Shown here piece after piece: positions 14,201 to 32,329 of a stretch of 32,329 nucleotides of DNA. Position numbers and translations under genes: made by a program. Location: the IMG/VR virus record IMGVR_UViG_3300045457_000235, positions 1-32,329 of that record; one strand, written 5' to 3'. The notes beneath the pieces are model-generated. The model ran no database searches, was not told where the DNA came from, and saw only the letters and a program-made list of their open reading frames with translations. How positions within the stretch are numbered: position 1 is the first letter of the stretch; each line of letters opens with the position of its first letter. This stretch comes from a virus. Taxonomy: Duplodnaviria; Caudoviricetes.

Positions 14201-14554
14201 TTTTACAATGGAATTTACAAATCAACGGAACCTCAAGAACTTTCTAAGGATAAACCAGTAACTTCATTCATGGTAAATGAAGTTATCGATAAGTTAATAC
14301 AAGGGTATTCTCCCAAAGAATTAAAATGGTTTGATGTTTATTCAAGATTAACTGCAAATCAAATGGGAGACTTAGAATATAATAATTCTTATGAATTAGA
14401 AAAATCTTTAGAAGAAGGAGAGCGTGGAGTTTTAATTAAACCAGTATTAAGAACTGACAAAGAAGTTAAAACTTATATTGATCCTTTAATTATACCTGAA
14501 GTAGACGTACCTAATCCTATAATAACTAAGGAGAATAGATTTAATGCCATCTAA
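11288..14554 (+). CDS. Putative virion protein with N-terminal Cys/Pro-rich repeats
   Basis: 1088 aa. About 45 Cys in the first ~445 aa, arranged as 7 repeats; the C-terminal ~640 aa is almost Cys-free. Translationally coupled (TAATG) within the tail operon. The ORF is certain, the function is not. Confidence 0.5.
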   Translation: MTGGPPVFNCGEYKPLRFNPIRPPIIQEPNIFIPVSLNPRPPRRTDPVENYVCICRSTVTTLGGCSDESSRECVKISEAGGFPQSEVQYSSREQCEADAYSKRPCALSLFQCTRTQEPCPPPQYGTISRGFCGELPPVAFRPAALPIDIYDTLGNCILNCRTIRDCVSIPTTGDGQVTPAIPGGPPTGYKCVTTFSQCQNSGLRRNIRECVECVIKPEDPNCINQTLSECETACVSDECKYECVPYQIECPDNTYATGTRCAPCIYNPLDQSTENCNLPDESSCSECVPPICPPVIAGRTRIPVIPIIRDPGVLLGDQWRCAPGPACIRCTTQEILAGYCPYTTEARCIADCGVINTGGIYNDPVRYKCVNSTCTLCAATEAATNPNLCRYSNPNCNGECVPPPVFITYKGIIENGVRQCVQCNSTTTNPNTCPYPTLRDCALAWLYNPSTFDAETTFKASIQITQNNNINIINLGLNDSNVIEEKSFSEENKDTNIYDPIYNFFNYTSNETTRYVTNIYYLNIFNDFVAEEVYAFLDKNFKQQPFWNEKLFSNLTLAKISISLRKELIDSFSNIRSVDGTLVDPINFYQMIRKLLITNKLNEFDPSFYINLYEQQKDELINQYQFSESSEILERASLGILKTGSLISDPSQYKDLDKFKILRQKRLNTDINTRVNVTDINNQDYSVSLADDGLQVTDQDASSLVSVPLGTGEGYFINVTTDEEIKLPLITEEYRSYFAPTNIRYAALKAFQQNPDINLYVSSLSGQHELIESYELSTVLTPMYFALNLSKIEDQEKINPLVDNIKAEFNLLTNNQEIQDHVYNYGYSVIRINLDYRDPLIHYAKDTSCLSLEQNDITFRFFDLVKSGTLNSNSILTRNLPFGIVLVPGCGSQHNPFAGGSEIVDRFNGKVIRKITLTTLYDPSSKNIINEPKVLSSIETEPIESNLPEQNYNYANRFYYVYSTEKYKDTYFYNGIYKSTEPQELSKDKPVTSFMVNEVIDKLIQGYSPKELKWFDVYSRLTANQMGDLEYNNSYELEKSLEEGERGVLIKPVLRTDKEVKTYIDPLIIPEVDVPNPIITKENRFNAI
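11438..12625 (+). repeat. Seven degenerate Cys-rich protein repeats, (Y/F/W)xC...C(xxC)...C(x)Y.T...CxxxC
   Basis: Examples: YKCVTT..RECVEC..PNCINQTLSECETAC; WRCAPGPACIRC..YCPYTTEARCIADC; YKCVNSTCTLC..LCRYSNPNCNGEC; RQCVQC..TCPYPTLRDC. Confidence 0.8.
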
Positions 14555-25523: not shown

Positions 25524-28373
25524 ATGAGCTACTTTTTAGAGATACTAAATAGTTTTTCCAAAAGAACTGGACGTTCGTTAAGTATTCTGGAAAGAAGTGA
25601 TTCTAAGGTTAACACAGGACCTGTAGTCTTCTCCAATAACCCGGATGCTGGATGGGCTACAAATGTTAGAGATGGAAGAGAAGATTTAATTAGTTTAGGC
25701 TTTAGTGATCAGGATATTGCTGCAATAGAGGCAAAAGCTGGTCCAAACAAATCCGGTGCTGTAGCAATAACACCTCAAGGAAAAAGCAGCCCTGTAATTT
25801 ATGCATGGAGGATGGAAGGACAGGGACAGACCACATCGCAGCAACCTCAATCGGTACCCTTAGCACAGCCCACTCAAGGATCTCAAGCTTCTACAGCGAA
25901 GCCTCAAATGAATGCTCTGGTTGCAGAACTTCTTCCAATAGCTCAAAGTGTTTGGGATCAACAATTTCTAACTAATATTTCTACTAAAATTAAACCAAAA
26001 GACTGGAGATACCCAATAGTTTCTTCATTTTTAAAATATGCTTTAGGTTATAAAGCTTCATCACCAGAAGATATTAAAAAAATGGAATTGGAGGAAGATC
26101 GTTTGGAAGGTTTATTAAAGCCAGAAGATCTTGCTCAGGAAGATAAACAAAAAGTTTTTGGAAACTTTGTAGACAAGAACCTTACTTTTTTCGGAAGATT
26201 AGCAAGGTTGAGCGTGTTCTCTGTTAAGGAAGGGGAAATAGAACTACAGACTACAGAAGAGGAAACTGAAATTTCTAAAGAAGCTTTGGAAGGTGTGGCT
26301 AAGACTTGGAAAAGTATTTTTGATTTCTTATCAGATTACCAAGGAAGAGAAATATCAGACTTAAAACAAGATAAAGAATATCGTGCAAGGGCCGAATATC
26401 TTTTAAGTAGAATAAAACTTCTTAATCCAGAAAGCAAAACAAAAGGAGAGTTTACAAAAAAGTACGTTATTTATTCTGACGATTTACAATGGGCAGGGGT
26501 AGGGATCGATAGTGCTACAGTACATGCTTTGATGGGAATATTAAAGAGTAGATTATCTCCAGCTAGAGCTTCTCTCCAAAATCCAGAAGGTAAAGTAAAT
26601 TTTGATGAAGCAGACGTAGCAGAAGAAAGTGCAGCTACAAAACAATTTGGAGAAAACTTTGAAAAGTTTGTAGAGGGTTACTGTGCTTTGTCTATAGTTA
26701 GTCCTGAGTTAGCTGGAGATGTAGCAACTGACGTAGGAGAACTTCTAGAAACTTTTAAAAGAAAATGTTCTTCTTTAATTAAAATGTTATCTGTTGAAGA
26801 TATAGTTGGTGAGTCTAATGAGCTATTGGCAGCATTAAAATTGGCCGAAGATGTTAAATTAAAATTAGGTACAGAAGAAGATCAAGTTCAAGCTTTTGCA
26901 ATACTTGGAGCATTCATGAGGCGTAATCCTGTTTTTAGAAATGCCAAGGGAGTTTTCCGTAAAGGAGGCGAAACCATGGCAGGAAAAAGACAAGACTTTA
27001 TAACTGTTTATGATTCCAAACAAAAAGCACAGGAAGCGTCAAATTTTTCTTTAGAAACTTATACTGAAATTACAGTTGGTGATTTTAAGAAAAAAAGAAA
27101 TGAATACAAAGATACCTATAAAACCTTTGATTCATTAGTTGCTGGAAAAGAAGATAATGAAGTTTTGTATTTAATGCAGCCTTCAATAAAAATTAACACA
27201 AAATCAGAAGAACAAATAAAATTAGCAAGTCAATCACTAAAGTCTCAACAATATATATTAAATATTTTAAAAGCAAAATATCAAGGAAATAAAGAAGCTT
27301 ATGAAAGAGAGAGTGCAAAATATTTAGAATATCTAAAAACGTTACCCGGTGCTTCTGGAAAAGTATTACCTAGTTTGGAAGATATAGATGCTTCTAACAA
27401 AGTTATGGGTTCTTTATTTAAAGAAGCCTCTGGAGATACAGACTTACAAAGATTACAGGAAGCATCAGAAAGAGTAGCAAGAGATCTAAGAGTTTTAGTA
27501 AATATAGATTCTTTTGAAGACGGACAAGCAGTAATTCTAGGTAACGATAAGGAACCTATAAAACAAGATAATTTATCTAAGGTTATAGATCTAGTAACAA
27601 AAACTATTAATAAAAGACTTGGAATAAGCATAGGAATAGACATTGAGGACAAATCTTTTGATCGGTCAAAAGAAGTATCAGACTTAGAATTAGAAAAAGT
27701 TGTAAGTGAATTGTATGGTAATAAAGCAAAAGAAGTATTTACTGAATTAAATAAGCATATAACAAGAATACAAGAATTAAAAGAACCAAAAGAAAAAAAA
27801 GCTGCGCTAAGAGACTTATTAATTTATACTAGAAATGTAACACTAAAACAAGAATGTGACGAGAGAGATGCTGGTGGTAAGCTAACTGAAAAAGCTAAAA
27901 AGAGAAGAGAAGAAATAGCTATTGAATTAATAAGCGCAGCACATTCTTCTAAAGAATCTCAATCTGTTCATTCCTTTGATTTAGATGGAAACATGCATGT
28001 GTTTTCTCATAATGAACCTTTACGAGTCTTTTTATCAAAATTTTTAAGTGATAGTCCTGACGTTGAGTTTAATGTCAGTAAAAAAGGATATTCTTTATTT
28101 ATAAGAGAACAAGGAAACGAACTAAACGGTTCTCGATTATCACTTCAATATTCTGAAGGTGGTGGAGGTCTTAGTAGCTATATTAATATAAATGAAAAAA
28201 CTAAACAATCTTTTTCTAGAAAAGAAGGTAAAGTAAAGTTACCTAGAAAAGGTAAAAATAAATCTTTATCTAAGGAAGCTGTAGAAGAGATGATAGAGTC
28301 TTATTTAGAAAAACAAAAAAGATTTTTGATGAAATTAATCGAACCAAAAATCTCTAGTGCTAATTTTAAGTAA
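25524..28373 (+). CDS. Large hypothetical protein, possibly head-packaged
   Basis: 949 aa, K/E-rich and helical. Short leader ending SILE (gp21-type site), followed by a Q/P-rich linker. No recognised family. Confidence 0.5.
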   Translation: MSYFLEILNSFSKRTGRSLSILERSDSKVNTGPVVFSNNPDAGWATNVRDGREDLISLGFSDQDIAAIEAKAGPNKSGAVAITPQGKSSPVIYAWRMEGQGQTTSQQPQSVPLAQPTQGSQASTAKPQMNALVAELLPIAQSVWDQQFLTNISTKIKPKDWRYPIVSSFLKYALGYKASSPEDIKKMELEEDRLEGLLKPEDLAQEDKQKVFGNFVDKNLTFFGRLARLSVFSVKEGEIELQTTEEETEISKEALEGVAKTWKSIFDFLSDYQGREISDLKQDKEYRARAEYLLSRIKLLNPESKTKGEFTKKYVIYSDDLQWAGVGIDSATVHALMGILKSRLSPARASLQNPEGKVNFDEADVAEESAATKQFGENFEKFVEGYCALSIVSPELAGDVATDVGELLETFKRKCSSLIKMLSVEDIVGESNELLAALKLAEDVKLKLGTEEDQVQAFAILGAFMRRNPVFRNAKGVFRKGGETMAGKRQDFITVYDSKQKAQEASNFSLETYTEITVGDFKKKRNEYKDTYKTFDSLVAGKEDNEVLYLMQPSIKINTKSEEQIKLASQSLKSQQYILNILKAKYQGNKEAYERESAKYLEYLKTLPGASGKVLPSLEDIDASNKVMGSLFKEASGDTDLQRLQEASERVARDLRVLVNIDSFEDGQAVILGNDKEPIKQDNLSKVIDLVTKTINKRLGISIGIDIEDKSFDRSKEVSDLELEKVVSELYGNKAKEVFTELNKHITRIQELKEPKEKKAALRDLLIYTRNVTLKQECDERDAGGKLTEKAKKRREEIAIELISAAHSSKESQSVHSFDLDGNMHVFSHNEPLRVFLSKFLSDSPDVEFNVSKKGYSLFIREQGNELNGSRLSLQYSEGGGGLSSYININEKTKQSFSRKEGKVKLPRKGKNKSLSKEAVEEMIESYLEKQKRFLMKLIEPKISSANFK

Positions 28374-28853
28374 GTCTTCTAACTTCATTACAAGTAAACT
28401 ACTATTGTTAAAACTTATAAAAGGTACATCTTTAGCTGAGTGTTTTAAATATAAGTCTTCAAATATTGCAAGTGTATCTTTTCTGTCTTGCTGAAAAATA
28501 ACCATCCATTTTTTCGAGATTTTGCTTGCATCTCTCTTGGCTTGCTCGATAAAATCATAGAACTCTGATTTAGTATTAAATAAACTTCCTAACCCTACTT
28601 TATTGTAGCCTTTCTTACATTCAATAATATATTGAAACTTTTGAGGAACAATAAGATCTCCGTAAACTTTTAAGTGATCTGGTAGTTTGTGTGTATTTGC
28701 AAATGCACCTGACCCGGGCGACCTGTTAAAATCTGTAGTTTCAAATCTTTCGTTAAACAGTGAGCACACTTTTCTTTCAAAAGCGTTGCCTTTTGTACGA
28801 CTGTTCTTACGTTTTTTCTTCTTCAGAGCGGAAAAATCAAAATTGTCTTCCAT
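28335..28853 (-). CDS. Holliday junction resolvase (Hjc-like PD-(D/E)XK nuclease)
   Basis: NSRTKGNAFER...RSPGSGA...GDLIVP...IIECKK; GGAG RBS. Confidence 0.85.
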   Translation of the reverse strand: MEDNFDFSALKKKKRKNSRTKGNAFERKVCSLFNERFETTDFNRSPGSGAFANTHKLPDHLKVYGDLIVPQKFQYIIECKKGYNKVGLGSLFNTKSEFYDFIEQAKRDASKISKKWMVIFQQDRKDTLAIFEDLYLKHSAKDVPFISFNNSSLLVMKLEDLLKISTRDFWFD

Positions 28854-28868
28854 AATCTTCTCCAGTGT

Positions 28869-28879
28869 ACTATGATAGT
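28869..28879. promoter_or_regulatory. Candidate bidirectional -10 element ACTAT-G-ATAGT
   Basis: Inverted repeat in the 43-bp divergent gap. It reads TATGAT on + and TATCAT on -, each upstream of an RBS. Confidence 0.5.
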
Positions 28880-28896
28880 TTACTTAATGAGGTTAT

Positions 28897-29172
28897 ATGC
28901 AAATTTCAATTAATTTTACAGAAGATGAAGCTCAAGCATTCAAAAATTGGTCTGGTCAAGTTAGACCTATTGAGCTTGATCTAGACACTTTTTACAAACA
29001 AATTTTCTTTAATGGAATTGGTGCCATAAATGAGAAGTTAGCTACGATGGCACAGGAGTCTCTTAGTAATCCAGAGGTTAGGCAAAAGCTTAAAGAATCT
29101 GGTGTTGACGTAGAGCAACTGGAAAAAGAAATTCTAGAGAGCCAACAATCAAGTCCCCCTGCCGCCACCTGA
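28897..29172 (+). CDS. Small protein, ribbon-helix-helix-like putative DNA-binding
   Basis: 91 aa. Alternating N-terminal strand MQISINFT followed by two amphipathic helices; GAGGT RBS. Confidence 0.4.
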   Translation: MQISINFTEDEAQAFKNWSGQVRPIELDLDTFYKQIFFNGIGAINEKLATMAQESLSNPEVRQKLKESGVDVEQLEKEILESQQSSPPAAT

Positions 29173-29174
29173 AC

Positions 29175-29522
29175 ATGAATAATTTTAAGTTGACGTTTTT
29201 GAATCGTCACGTTCAATTAGAAGATTTAATTGAAAGTTTAAACATTCCGCAAAGACAAGCAACTTTCCTGCTAGTTAATGATTGGTGCGATGTTTGTGGT
29301 AAGTTACTGACTAGGCTCAAGTGTAGCAACTCTAGTGAGCTACCTCCAAAAGAGATTTTTGTTCTGGACTCTTGGGATATCCCAGATGGAACTCAGATGC
29401 TTAGAGAATCCTTTGGAATAAAAACAAGAATTAATAGAGTTCCGTCTCTTGTAGTTATTAAGGACAATAACGTTTCAGTCATCACTAATAATGATGCTGT
29501 TTATAGAGAACTGGGACTCTGA
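29175..29522 (+). CDS. Thioredoxin-like protein
   Basis: 115 aa with WCDVC active-site motif after a hydrophobic strand and a cis-Pro-type motif INRVPSLVVIK. Confidence 0.75.
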   Translation: MNNFKLTFLNRHVQLEDLIESLNIPQRQATFLLVNDWCDVCGKLLTRLKCSNSSELPPKEIFVLDSWDIPDGTQMLRESFGIKTRINRVPSLVVIKDNNVSVITNNDAVYRELGL

Positions 29523-29863
29523 TCTCTCTGCCGAGGTCCGTATTTCATTTCAAAATAATCGTTAATTTTCTCAGAATACTTTTTACGTTTAGTAAAAATA
29601 AGTTTGAGATTATTAACGATTATTGTCGTAAAGTAATTGAATGCGCTACCTTGAGAGGGTTTAAAGTTTTTGAGCGTCTTTAGAACCAGAACAAAACACT
29701 CCTGTTTTGCATCTTCCTTATCGACTTTGAAGTGGAAGCTGTCTATGATATTGGAGATGAGTAGGTCGAATAGATGAAACAACTCTGCCTCGTTCTTGTG
29801 GCGACCTCTACAGTGCTCTTTGATTAACTTCTCAAATTTCTTATTATCAATGTAATTAGGCAT
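29501..29863 (-). CDS. gp55: Late transcription sigma factor (T4 gp55-like), minimal
   Basis: NYIDNKKF...EDAKQEC...LKNFKPSQGSAFNYFTTII matches the gp55 pattern YVNNK...NF.P....F.YFT.I; 120 aa. Confidence 0.8.
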   Translation of the reverse strand: MPNYIDNKKFEKLIKEHCRGRHKNEAELFHLFDLLISNIIDSFHFKVDKEDAKQECFVLVLKTLKNFKPSQGSAFNYFTTIIVNNLKLIFTKRKKYSEKINDYFEMKYGPRQRDQSPSSL

Positions 29864-29877
29864 TACATTAATTATAG

Positions 29878-30927
29878 ATGAACTTTTTAAACGATTTATA
29901 CAAAACTACTTATGAGGGTTGCACTGGCTGCAAGATCCTCAATAAGAATCTTCCAGTCCATTCTGTCATGGACTACAAGGACTTTAAACAAGCAGACATA
30001 CTTTTTGTGTCAGATTCTTTTAAGATGGATCAAACGGGAGATGTGCTTCCATTTGATAATGAGGAGTCCGATCTTATCTTAGATGTGCTTAAAGCAAGTG
30101 ACGCTATCCCTATTATGAATAGGATCCAGTACACTGCTTCTGTTAAGTGCCCTAAGATTAGGCTTGATGATATCTCCAAGGATGACAAAGATATTTGCAG
30201 AAAGCATATTTTTGCTACCCTAGAAACCGTCAAACCTAAACTTGTGTTTGCCTGTGGTAATCTACCTCTCGTCATGCTTACCAGAAAGACTGGAATCGAA
30301 CAAAAGAGAGGTAGATCTATCCCAATAACTCTTGAATCCGGCCATGAGTGCGTTATCGTCCCCATCTATCACCCCTTCCAAGTCATCATCGAACCAAGAA
30401 ATCGGTATCTCTTTGAGACCGATATCCAGAATGCCATCAATGAATTCATTTTTAAGAAGAACTCTGAAGCTAGCTTTTCCTATACTCTTGTGGATACTAT
30501 TGACAAGCTTCATAACCTAAACTTACCTCTAGATGAGGAGGGTATTGTGGCGGTCGATATAGAGACTGAGGGTTTAAACTTCCTGACGCAGAAGATTCTC
30601 ACTGTCGCCTTAAGTTTTAAGTCTAATGGTGTGTATACTAATTGTGTTATCCCTCTTAATCATAGAGAGTCGAGGTTTAGTGAACAGGAACTGGGATTAG
30701 TCCTAGAAGAGCTTAAACGGCTATTTGCAGCCCCTTGTCGTAAGGTGCTACACAATGCCAAGTTCGACCTAAAGTTCTTTCGTTTGGCCGGAATAACCGA
30801 TGTACGGAACGTATGGGACACAAAGGTAATGCAACACCTAATTGACGAGAATCTACCTAAATCTCTTAAGGATCTTGTTAACTATTATTTTCCTCATGAA
30901 ATAAAGTCTGATGCTAACAGTAACTAA
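29878..30927 (+). CDS. DNA polymerase A part 1: family-4 UDG-like Fe-S domain fused to 3'-5' exonuclease motifs I and II
   Basis: CTGC...VKCP...DIC, KPKLVFACG and PIYHP (UDG family 4), followed by VAVDIETEGL (ExoI), HNAKFD (ExoII), WDT.VM..LIDEN and SLKDL. Confidence 0.85.
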   Translation: MNFLNDLYKTTYEGCTGCKILNKNLPVHSVMDYKDFKQADILFVSDSFKMDQTGDVLPFDNEESDLILDVLKASDAIPIMNRIQYTASVKCPKIRLDDISKDDKDICRKHIFATLETVKPKLVFACGNLPLVMLTRKTGIEQKRGRSIPITLESGHECVIVPIYHPFQVIIEPRNRYLFETDIQNAINEFIFKKNSEASFSYTLVDTIDKLHNLNLPLDEEGIVAVDIETEGLNFLTQKILTVALSFKSNGVYTNCVIPLNHRESRFSEQELGLVLEELKRLFAAPCRKVLHNAKFDLKFFRLAGITDVRNVWDTKVMQHLIDENLPKSLKDLVNYYFPHEIKSDANSN

Positions 30928-31456
30928 CCCAAATCGTGTAAATTGGAGTGAGATGTCCCTAGCTCAAATGGCTAGAGGCAATGCACTCGATAGTTATTTT
31001 ACCCTTAAGTGTTACGAGGTTCTTTATGATAAGCTCGATAAACTTAAAATGGTTAAAACTTATGAGGAGATTATGGCTCCAGCCTCTCTCTTCTTTGTCG
31101 ATATGGAAGTTGATGGTCTAACCATATCTGAAAGTCAACTTAAGATCCTACAAAAGGAACTCAGAAATAAGATTATTGAAGCCGAAGAACTTCTTTATTC
31201 TTACCCAGAAGTTAAAAAGGACTCCAATATGGGATCAGCAAATGACATGATTCGAATCTTTTTTTCTTTAGATAAATTTGTAGGAACCCAAGGGCAGAAG
31301 GATTGGCTAATTAACCCAGAATGGGGATTTGGTTTGTATCCTCCGGTATTTACTGCTAAAAAGCAGCCATCTACCTCGTATGAAGCGTTAGACTTACTTT
31401 TAACACAGATTAAAGACGAAATAGATCGTAGAGGACTCCATGGGAAGAAAAAGTGA
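30911..31456 (+). CDS. DNA polymerase A part 2: ExoIII region and N-terminal half of thumb
   Basis: NW...GNALD (ExoIII position), P....VDMEVDGL, SNMGSANDM..IFF (corresponds to FNxxSxxQL) and GL.P..T.K.QPST..EAL..L. Confidence 0.8.
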   Translation: MLTVTNPNRVNWSEMSLAQMARGNALDSYFTLKCYEVLYDKLDKLKMVKTYEEIMAPASLFFVDMEVDGLTISESQLKILQKELRNKIIEAEELLYSYPEVKKDSNMGSANDMIRIFFSLDKFVGTQGQKDWLINPEWGFGLYPPVFTAKKQPSTSYEALDLLLTQIKDEIDRRGLHGKKK

Positions 31457-32329
31457 AGAAGAGCAGAATAAGAATGTTAGTGCCTCAGTAATAGCTCAAA
31501 AGTCGGACAAGGAACTCTTACGCACTAAAGAGTTTATTGAAAAGTTCCTAGAACTTCGTGGGTTGGAAAAACTTTACAATACTTATATCAAAACTGTTTC
31601 TGGTGCTCTTAAGTATAATAAGAGTAATAAGATTTATGTAGAATATAAGTTAGATGGAACAGCCACAGGTCGCCTATCCAACGCAGGTTATAATGCCGAG
31701 GAAGCTATGGGAGTGTCGTTTCACACACTTCCAAGAGAATCGGCAGCAGTCAACATTCGTAGTTATGTTGTCGCCCCGGAAGGCCACGATTTTATTACCG
31801 CTGACATGAAGGCGATGGAACTAAGGATTCTCGCTCACCTGTCTAGGGAGAAGAACATGGTGAAGGCATTTAATAATAAAATAGACCTTCACAAGTATTC
31901 GGCATCCATGACGTTTGGTAAACCCCTAGATAAGGTAACAGACGAGGAGCGTCAAATTGCTAAGGAAGTTTCGTTCTTGGTTGTATACGGTGGCTCTGAT
32001 TATACTCTGGCAAGGAAGCGAGGTATTCCTCAAAAACGAGCCTCAGACATTATCAACGGATGGATGGCAGCATTCCCGGGAGTTCCAAGCTACATGGAAC
32101 ACGTTTTCAATCACATTAAGAACCGTGGGTATGCTTATACTATTTTTGGCCGTCGCCGCAACCTCCCTAACATTTATGCAAATGTTGAGTCTGTGCAGAA
32201 GCAAGCCCTTAGACAAGGACTCAACTTTACAGTTCAATCTGCTGCCAGTGATACCCTCCTTTGTTGCATCCTTGGTCTTAACAAGAGACTCAAGGACAAG
32301 AATATGGACACTAAAATTGTAGCAACCGT
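31440..32329 (+). CDS. polA: DNA polymerase A part 3: rest of thumb, palm and fingers (3'-truncated; absent from the ORF track)
   Basis: Translated by hand from ATG 31440 (GAGGA upstream): LELRGLEKLYNTY, GTATGRLS, motif A ADMKAMELRILAHLS, DLH, motif B RQIAKEVSFLVVYG, FPGV, TIFGRRR, NFTVQSAASD, ending KIVAT just before motif C. Confidence 0.95.
   Translation, partial: MGRKSEEEQNKNVSASVIAQKSDKELLRTKEFIEKFLELRGLEKLYNTYIKTVSGALKYNKSNKIYVEYKLDGTATGRLSNAGYNAEEAMGVSFHTLPRESAAVNIRSYVVAPEGHDFITADMKAMELRILAHLSREKNMVKAFNNKIDLHKYSASMTFGKPLDKVTDEERQIAKEVSFLVVYGGSDYTLARKRGIPQKRASDIINGWMAAFPGVPSYMEHVFNHIKNRGYAYTIFGRRRNLPNIYANVESVQKQALRQGLNFTVQSAASDTLLCCILGLNKRLKDKNMDTKIVAT

Follow-up and report, generated by a model that had tools for sequence, protein, structure and literature searches.

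A UDG-fused family A DNA polymerase divided over three conserved genes in T4-like aquatic phages

Three genes for one polymerase

Three collinear ORFs at the end of the window (by which we mean the whole stretch of DNA analysed, 32,329 nucleotides) rebuild one family A polymerase of the UDG-Exo-PolA type (Table 1), as a sequence-only reading had described, and their products match consecutive stretches of PHROG 17. The part-3 ORF still runs at 32327, where 296 aa have been encoded, meaning that its true length exceeds this value; the complete part 3 of the close relative L001 has 357 aa. Each downstream frame is closed just upstream of its start, by TAA at 30902–30904 for part 2 and by TAG at 31422–31424 for part 3, and both 17-nt overlaps come with a +1 frame change, in agreement with that reading. 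The GAGGA taken there as the ribosome-binding site of part 3 is also present, 4 nt 5′ of the ATG; no Shine-Dalgarno-like sequence was found before part 2 in the window. A sigma-70 promoter scan of positions 28700–32329 gave 6 sites against 7.8 expected, that is, no signal.

Table 1. Positions, in the window, of the split polymerase genes, their junctions and three upstream genes
Feature	Position	Strand	Description
Part 1	29878..30927	+	349 aa; UDG and first part of PolA exonuclease with ExoI/II
Part 2	30911..31456	+	181 aa; starts MLT; ExoIII helix, connecting helices, most of thumb
Part 3	31440..32329	+	N-terminal tail, last thumb helix, palm, fingers; motif A (D122), motif B
Junction 1	30911..30927	+	17-nt overlap of parts 1 and 2; no Shine-Dalgarno sequence
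Junction 2	31431..31456	+	GAGGA Shine-Dalgarno-like sequence, part-3 ATG at 31440, 17-nt overlap with part-2 stop
949-aa protein gene	25524..28373		after tail tube gene; no Pfam or PHROG match at useful E-value
Resolvase gene	28335..28853	-	PD-(D/E)XK/RusA-like; upstream of polymerase
Small sigma-like gene	29501..29863	-	sigma-70 region 2-like; upstream of polymerase

The window also carries T4-like virion genes, namely those of the gp23 capsid protein, prohead protease, tail sheath, tube and sheath stabiliser. Fifteen runs each contain half or more of the sampled window words; 14 of them are labelled freshwater and one aquatic metagenome, and no RNA run is among those listed. The search for a close cultured phage returned none (best identity ~31–32%), and no relative was confirmed among GTDB genome contigs. 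The window is a 32-kb fragment, and another replicative polymerase may lie elsewhere in the genome. The relative L002 keeps the order of the resolvase and sigma-70 region 2-like genes, and has a long ORF at the position of the 949-aa protein gene.

Both breaks lie where they were first placed. Break 1 divides the ExoI and ExoII acids, on part 1, from the ExoIII aspartate, on part 2. Break 2 is in the thumb: the part-2 profile (93 sequences) covers, in its alignment with the Klenow fragment (E 5e-16), the region that starts at the ExoIII helix and ends at the thumb tip, and part 3 matches DNA_pol_A (PF00476) from position 66 onwards (66–331 of 381, E 6e-66).

Part 1 matches UDG and positions 1–132 of 173 of the DNA_pol_A_exo1 profile, and its exonuclease carboxylates D227, E229 and D297 are invariant in 46 part-1 sequences. 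The UDG profile aligns to the UDG of 4zbx with an E-value of 1e-16. Its catalytic motif is altered, GEAPG of 4zbx being replaced by SDS and the Asn before VKC by Ser or Ala, so that part 1 lacks the intact GE-type motif A of an active family-4 UDG. The HP motif and four Cys are retained in the three-gene forms; the KC..C pattern is missing from all 42 two-gene part-1 proteins. Judging from these motifs the UDG domain is probably non-catalytic, and it could have a structural or processivity-related role.

In part 2 the ExoIII helix reads G23-x-x-x-D27, with GNALD standing opposite the Klenow YAAED, and M1, L2, G23, N24 and D27 are invariant across the 93 part-2 sequences. The 3′–5′ exonuclease carboxylates of ExoI, ExoII and ExoIII are thus all present (D227, E229, D297 and part-2 D27). 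The ExoIII tyrosine (YxxxD) is replaced by Gly in each of 125 distinct N-termini of split forms (124 counted by pattern and L020 by eye) and is retained in distant intact relatives; proofreading may accordingly be weaker or rebuilt. The structure model of part 2 (pLDDT 87, pTM 0.57) consists mainly of long helices and ends in an extended C-terminal helix (residues 157–174), and the low pTM together with the long helices is what we would expect of a chain that packs on partners. Foldseek gave no match to this model at E ⩽ 0.001, the top row being Bacillus Pol I (E 0.087, TM 0.37).

The family A polymerase motifs A (Asp), B (R-x3-K-x3-F/Y-x3-YG) and C (HD) are all found, with D122, R171/K175/F179/Y183 and H298/D299 invariant in 58 part-3 sequences. 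The earlier statement that the core catalytic residues are intact therefore holds for the carboxylates and for motifs A and B, which lie in the window, and not for the exonuclease motifs as a whole, since these are not fully canonical; motif C (HDS) falls just past the window end and is visible only in relatives, where it was read in L001.

The split in relatives

The split is genuine and runs through the whole clade. Junction 1 is spanned free of gaps, under a bridging rule of 31 letters on each side, by contigs of two further runs (X3 and X5); over junction 2, overlapping contigs of four runs form an indel-free tiling, though no contig among them satisfies the 31-letter rule on both sides. 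In L001, which is 91–96% identical to the window, both junctions are unchanged, and comparison with L001 gives dN/dS values of 0.064, 0.021 and 0.053 for parts 1, 2 and 3; by this measure all three genes are under purifying selection.

Part-2 or part-3 queries yielded 101 loci, some of them duplicates, with the metagenome scan represented by the best 80 of 192. Loci were gathered with part-2 or two-gene profiles and the best 80 taken per scan, so the counts given here are not unbiased frequencies. Across the 101 listed loci there are 72 different part-2 proteins. In 79 of the loci (54 distinct) all three parts can be seen, and in none of the 101 do two parts lie in a common stop-to-stop frame. 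A profile search without length filter returned 2341 clusters; among the best 150, 83 are stand-alone part-2 proteins of 150–185 aa, 10 start like part 2 and continue into part 3, and a further 13 have matches to every one of the three parts, with ~23–30% identity to part 2. A word search for longer proteins found 7 distant Pol I-type proteins, which carry little weight alone.

Many relatives share both breakpoints, with overlap lengths, frames and inserts that differ. At junction 1, the 57 distinct listed loci with a visible part 1 include overlaps of 1 nt (22 loci), 7 nt (6) and 17 nt (1), and 28 in which an insert of 118–2486 nt separates the two genes. Adjacent relatives thus usually have a 1-nt stop-start overlap here, and the frame is opposite to that of the window in 28 of 29 adjacent distinct loci. 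At junction 2 the distinct adjacent listed loci divide into 35 with a +1 and 30 with a −1 frame, and the overlaps are mainly of 4 or 8 nt (starts were called automatically, and two look doubtful). We have also considered whether the identical 17-nt/+1 overlaps of the window carry a special meaning, and rejected it: among the 57 relatives a junction-1 overlap of 17 nt occurs in L001 alone, and the match is lineage-specific.

The genes inserted between the parts in relatives include ThyX, glutamine synthetase, dNMP kinase and glycosyltransferase genes. Junction-1 inserts of three-gene loci are mainly small antisense genes, others being glycosyltransferase or 2OG-Fe(II) oxygenase genes, and junction 2 is interrupted by a dNMP kinase gene in L019 and L171. 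Variable arrays of small basic genes lie on the minus strand between parts 1 and 2 in L025, L044, L061, L075, L077 and L079; their products often start with a MNSYERIY..LL.E-like signal and have almost no Pfam matches. They are reminiscent of the capsid-targeted internal proteins found in T4-like phages.

A TA(T/A)TATATA-type motif stands just 5′ of the part-2 ATG in 24 of the 28 distinct insert-bearing three-gene loci listed; of the four misses, the insert lies on the sense strand in three, and the fourth carries a longer variant. In the window the motif is absent at that place. The motif may be a two-way promoter. In insert-bearing loci a near-palindromic motif of the CTATTATATAG type was seen 16 nt before the part-2 ATG, between divergent genes (for example at L025:3984-4003), and at window positions 14517 and 25512 gene starts are directly preceded by sites of the related type CTATAATA; this would be a candidate phage promoter.

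Two-gene sisters and the probable order of the breaks

We have also scanned for two-gene loci with fused part 2+3 proteins. Among the best 80 of 555 confirmed stretches, parts 2 and 3 form one ORF in 61, 15 are three-gene and 4 have contigs that lack part 2. Where part 1 is visible, in 71 loci of this set, it is always a gene of its own, and parts 1 and 2 are fused in none of the 71. All split forms cluster apart from 7 intact PolAs (SH-aLRT 100), an outgroup that is distant and small, which leaves the root soft. Since two-gene forms occupy deep branches as well as one large clade of the tree, break 1 is probably ancestral to the group and break 2 later, meaning that fission was likely stepwise, with the exonuclease cut first and the thumb cut second.

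Several other genes were noted around part 1 and part 2 of two-gene loci. The gap between them holds glutamine synthetase genes in L106, L107, L119, L120, L122, L123 and L125, saccharopine dehydrogenase-like genes in L116 and L162, and ThyX in several. An ORF of 61–67 aa with no convincing family abuts or overlaps the start of the fused 2+3 gene in L109, L121, L129, L142, L146, L147, L161 and L162.

The distance from the thumb PS/PQ motif to the TY motif is 37–46 aa in 43 fused sequences versus 53–80 aa, summed over both chains, in 70 split ones, so that three-gene forms have ~30 extra residues at the thumb cut. Loci L164–L167 are three-gene, yet nested within the two-gene clade, and a single origin of three-gene forms that includes them was rejected by AU tests on junction-free polymerase domain columns (p-AU 6e-5, with the constrained tree search unfinished). 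Their tails are shorter (53–54 residues summed); both flanks of their junction 2 score as the two-gene type, and only ~40 tail residues are slightly nearer to the three-gene forms, a pattern that could reflect convergence or, equally, a short junction that was transferred. The fused protein P0095 has kept both tails and falls within the three-gene forms in free trees, and a re-fusion is possible. We do not claim it, since trees that place P0095 outside the three-gene forms were not rejected (p-AU 0.35 and 0.72).

Taken together, we consider it quite probable, from these sequence comparisons, that the three conserved PolA genes are translated separately and that their products assemble, without splicing, into a three-chain enzyme with a shared proofreading site. 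Where the genes abut, translation would be coupled through the start-stop overlaps. Part 2 would be a bridging chain packed on both neighbours, the proofreading site would form at the part 1/part 2 interface, and the extra residues at the thumb cut may act as docking helices or tails, a role suggested by those of the Aeh1 reductase, which is likewise fragmented (PMC3045599). Published split polymerases, discussed below, that form a complex or are predicted to do so are in keeping with this reading.

Two other arrangements of separate chains deserve attention. The motif before part 2 and the rejected single origin of the three-gene polymerase domain together raise the idea, which we regard as doubtful, that proofreading is a separable subunit, with part 1 transcribed apart from parts 2 and 3 and its dose relative to the polymerase chains tuning fidelity or processivity in the course of infection, and that the thumb cut with its tails originated, or was transferred, repeatedly. 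It also seems improbable that parts 2 and 3 are the working polymerase and part 1 a loose or structural partner, the composite exonuclease site giving little or no proofreading. The uniform ExoIII glycine would fit such a division of labour, as would the frequent distance of part 1 upstream of part 2 (⩽2.5 kb in the three-gene and ⩽3.7 kb in the two-gene loci listed) and the CCPols with their three exonuclease helices, predicted to use another protein for the missing piece (PMC10201439); however, the four exonuclease carboxylates are invariant and the exonuclease half of part 1 has a dN/dS of 0.10.

Rejoining of the pieces into one polypeptide is very unlikely by either of two routes. Two programmed +1 frameshifts would suit the paired 17-nt overlaps of the window and the part 2 that lacks a Shine-Dalgarno-like sequence, but junction 1 in relatives is nearly always in the opposite frame, junction 2 occurs in both frames, whole genes, mainly antisense, are inserted in 28 distinct listed loci, and the part-2 start Met is invariant. 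RNA splicing or split inteins, both known in phage polymerase genes (PMC2677866), are equally hard to credit: the window ORFs overlap and leave an intron no room, Rfam searches of the window and of 12 loci with inserts (13 sources in all) had no match that reached the gathering score, no intein family was found in the three parts, and HNH, GIY-YIG and LAGLIDADG families are absent from 83 distinct insert proteins of relatives. The first description, of parts with no intron, intein or homing nuclease between them, is thus borne out. The PD-(D/E)XK nuclease family does occur in 3 of these 83 proteins, all three from two-gene loci, and given these genes break 1 may have a mobile-nuclease origin.

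Sequencing error or a decaying pseudogene, to which a metagenomic assembly is in principle open, can be practically discounted given the contigs across junction 1 and the tiling of junction 2, the same junctions and the low dN/dS (0.02–0.06) against L001, and conservation in relatives down to ~30% identity. The sequence-only reading had left error and double frameshifting as alternatives; since overlaps vary (1–20 nt, both frames) and unrelated genes lie between the parts, error and a common frameshift are both removed as general explanations.

Relation to known split enzymes

A family A polymerase is treated as one chain, and in the papers covered here its split form has two genes. The widespread aquatic phage clade described here shows where the Pol I fold tolerates breaks, namely in the proofreading site and the thumb, and its intact outgroup, two-gene and three-gene forms provide a natural series for how split enzymes gain interfaces. 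The natural split sites are usable in polymerase engineering, and polA-based phage surveys could miss the clade or discard it as fragmentary. Among the main texts of openly readable papers, no paper was found with a three-gene PolA or with an ExoII/ExoIII cut for which both genes are present, although supplementary genome tables may list such genes, and the accessible portions of PMC8541194, PMC12926913, PMC7824862, PMC3201878, PMC11348598 and PMC10580990 do not describe the three-gene layout. The three-gene form of a UDG-fused PolA in T4-like aquatic phages is thus apparently undescribed.

Among published cases the nearest is the two-gene exo|pol fission of S-SBP1-like or clade B T7-like cyanophages, reported as the first in PolAs (Czernecki et al. 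2023, PMC10201439; PMC12695635), where the S-SBP1 exo and pol proteins form a complex by prediction (PMC10201439). As far as the available text of these papers goes, both systems have gene fission, overlapping ORFs, no splicing element and a predicted reassembly. The cyanophage PolA has two genes that separate the exo and pol domains, whereas here there are three genes and one cut runs through the exonuclease motifs; moreover, the present PolA is UDG-fused and accompanied by T4-like virion genes. With two breaks and T4-like genes the window does not belong to the S-SBP1-like type, which has a single break in a T7-like phage, and with overlapping ORFs and neither Rfam nor intein families it does not show the features of an intron- or intein-split polymerase either.

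The CCPol-MP of staphylococcal cassettes keeps only the last exonuclease helices and starts at about the position of break 1 (PMC10201439). For CCPol-MP, according to the available text, a gene encoding the lost part of the exonuclease was not found and an unrelated protein fills in; here, in contrast, the complementary exonuclease gene is present with its catalytic acids. The UDG-PolAs of N4-like, SPO1-like and SP15-like phages carry, like the present PolA, a family-4 UDG-like domain on the N-terminal side of exo and pol (PMC10201439, PMC13697223), and in N4-like enzymes the UDG catalytic motif also looks altered. In the portions of these sources available to us they are described as single-chain enzymes, unlike the three genes here, and the word 'split' does not occur in that of PMC13697223.

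Split polymerases are also known in family B (PMC2677866, PMC13648687). The gp43 of Aeromonas T4-like phages (PMC2677866) and DNAP-N/C of PhiKZ resemble the present case in that a replicative polymerase is divided over separate genes with variable spacing; these are two-gene splits of a family B catalytic core, and the PhiKZ halves form a stable 1:1 complex, as seen by cryoEM (PMC13648687). A further parallel is Aeh1 NrdA-a/NrdA-b (Crona et al., PMC3045599), again an essential enzyme of a phage that has been fragmented and bears new tails at the termini next to the break. This enzyme is a ribonucleotide reductase split by the mobE homing endonuclease, and its tails have been tested and are needed for activity, whereas the tails of the three-gene PolA are deduced from length and conservation.
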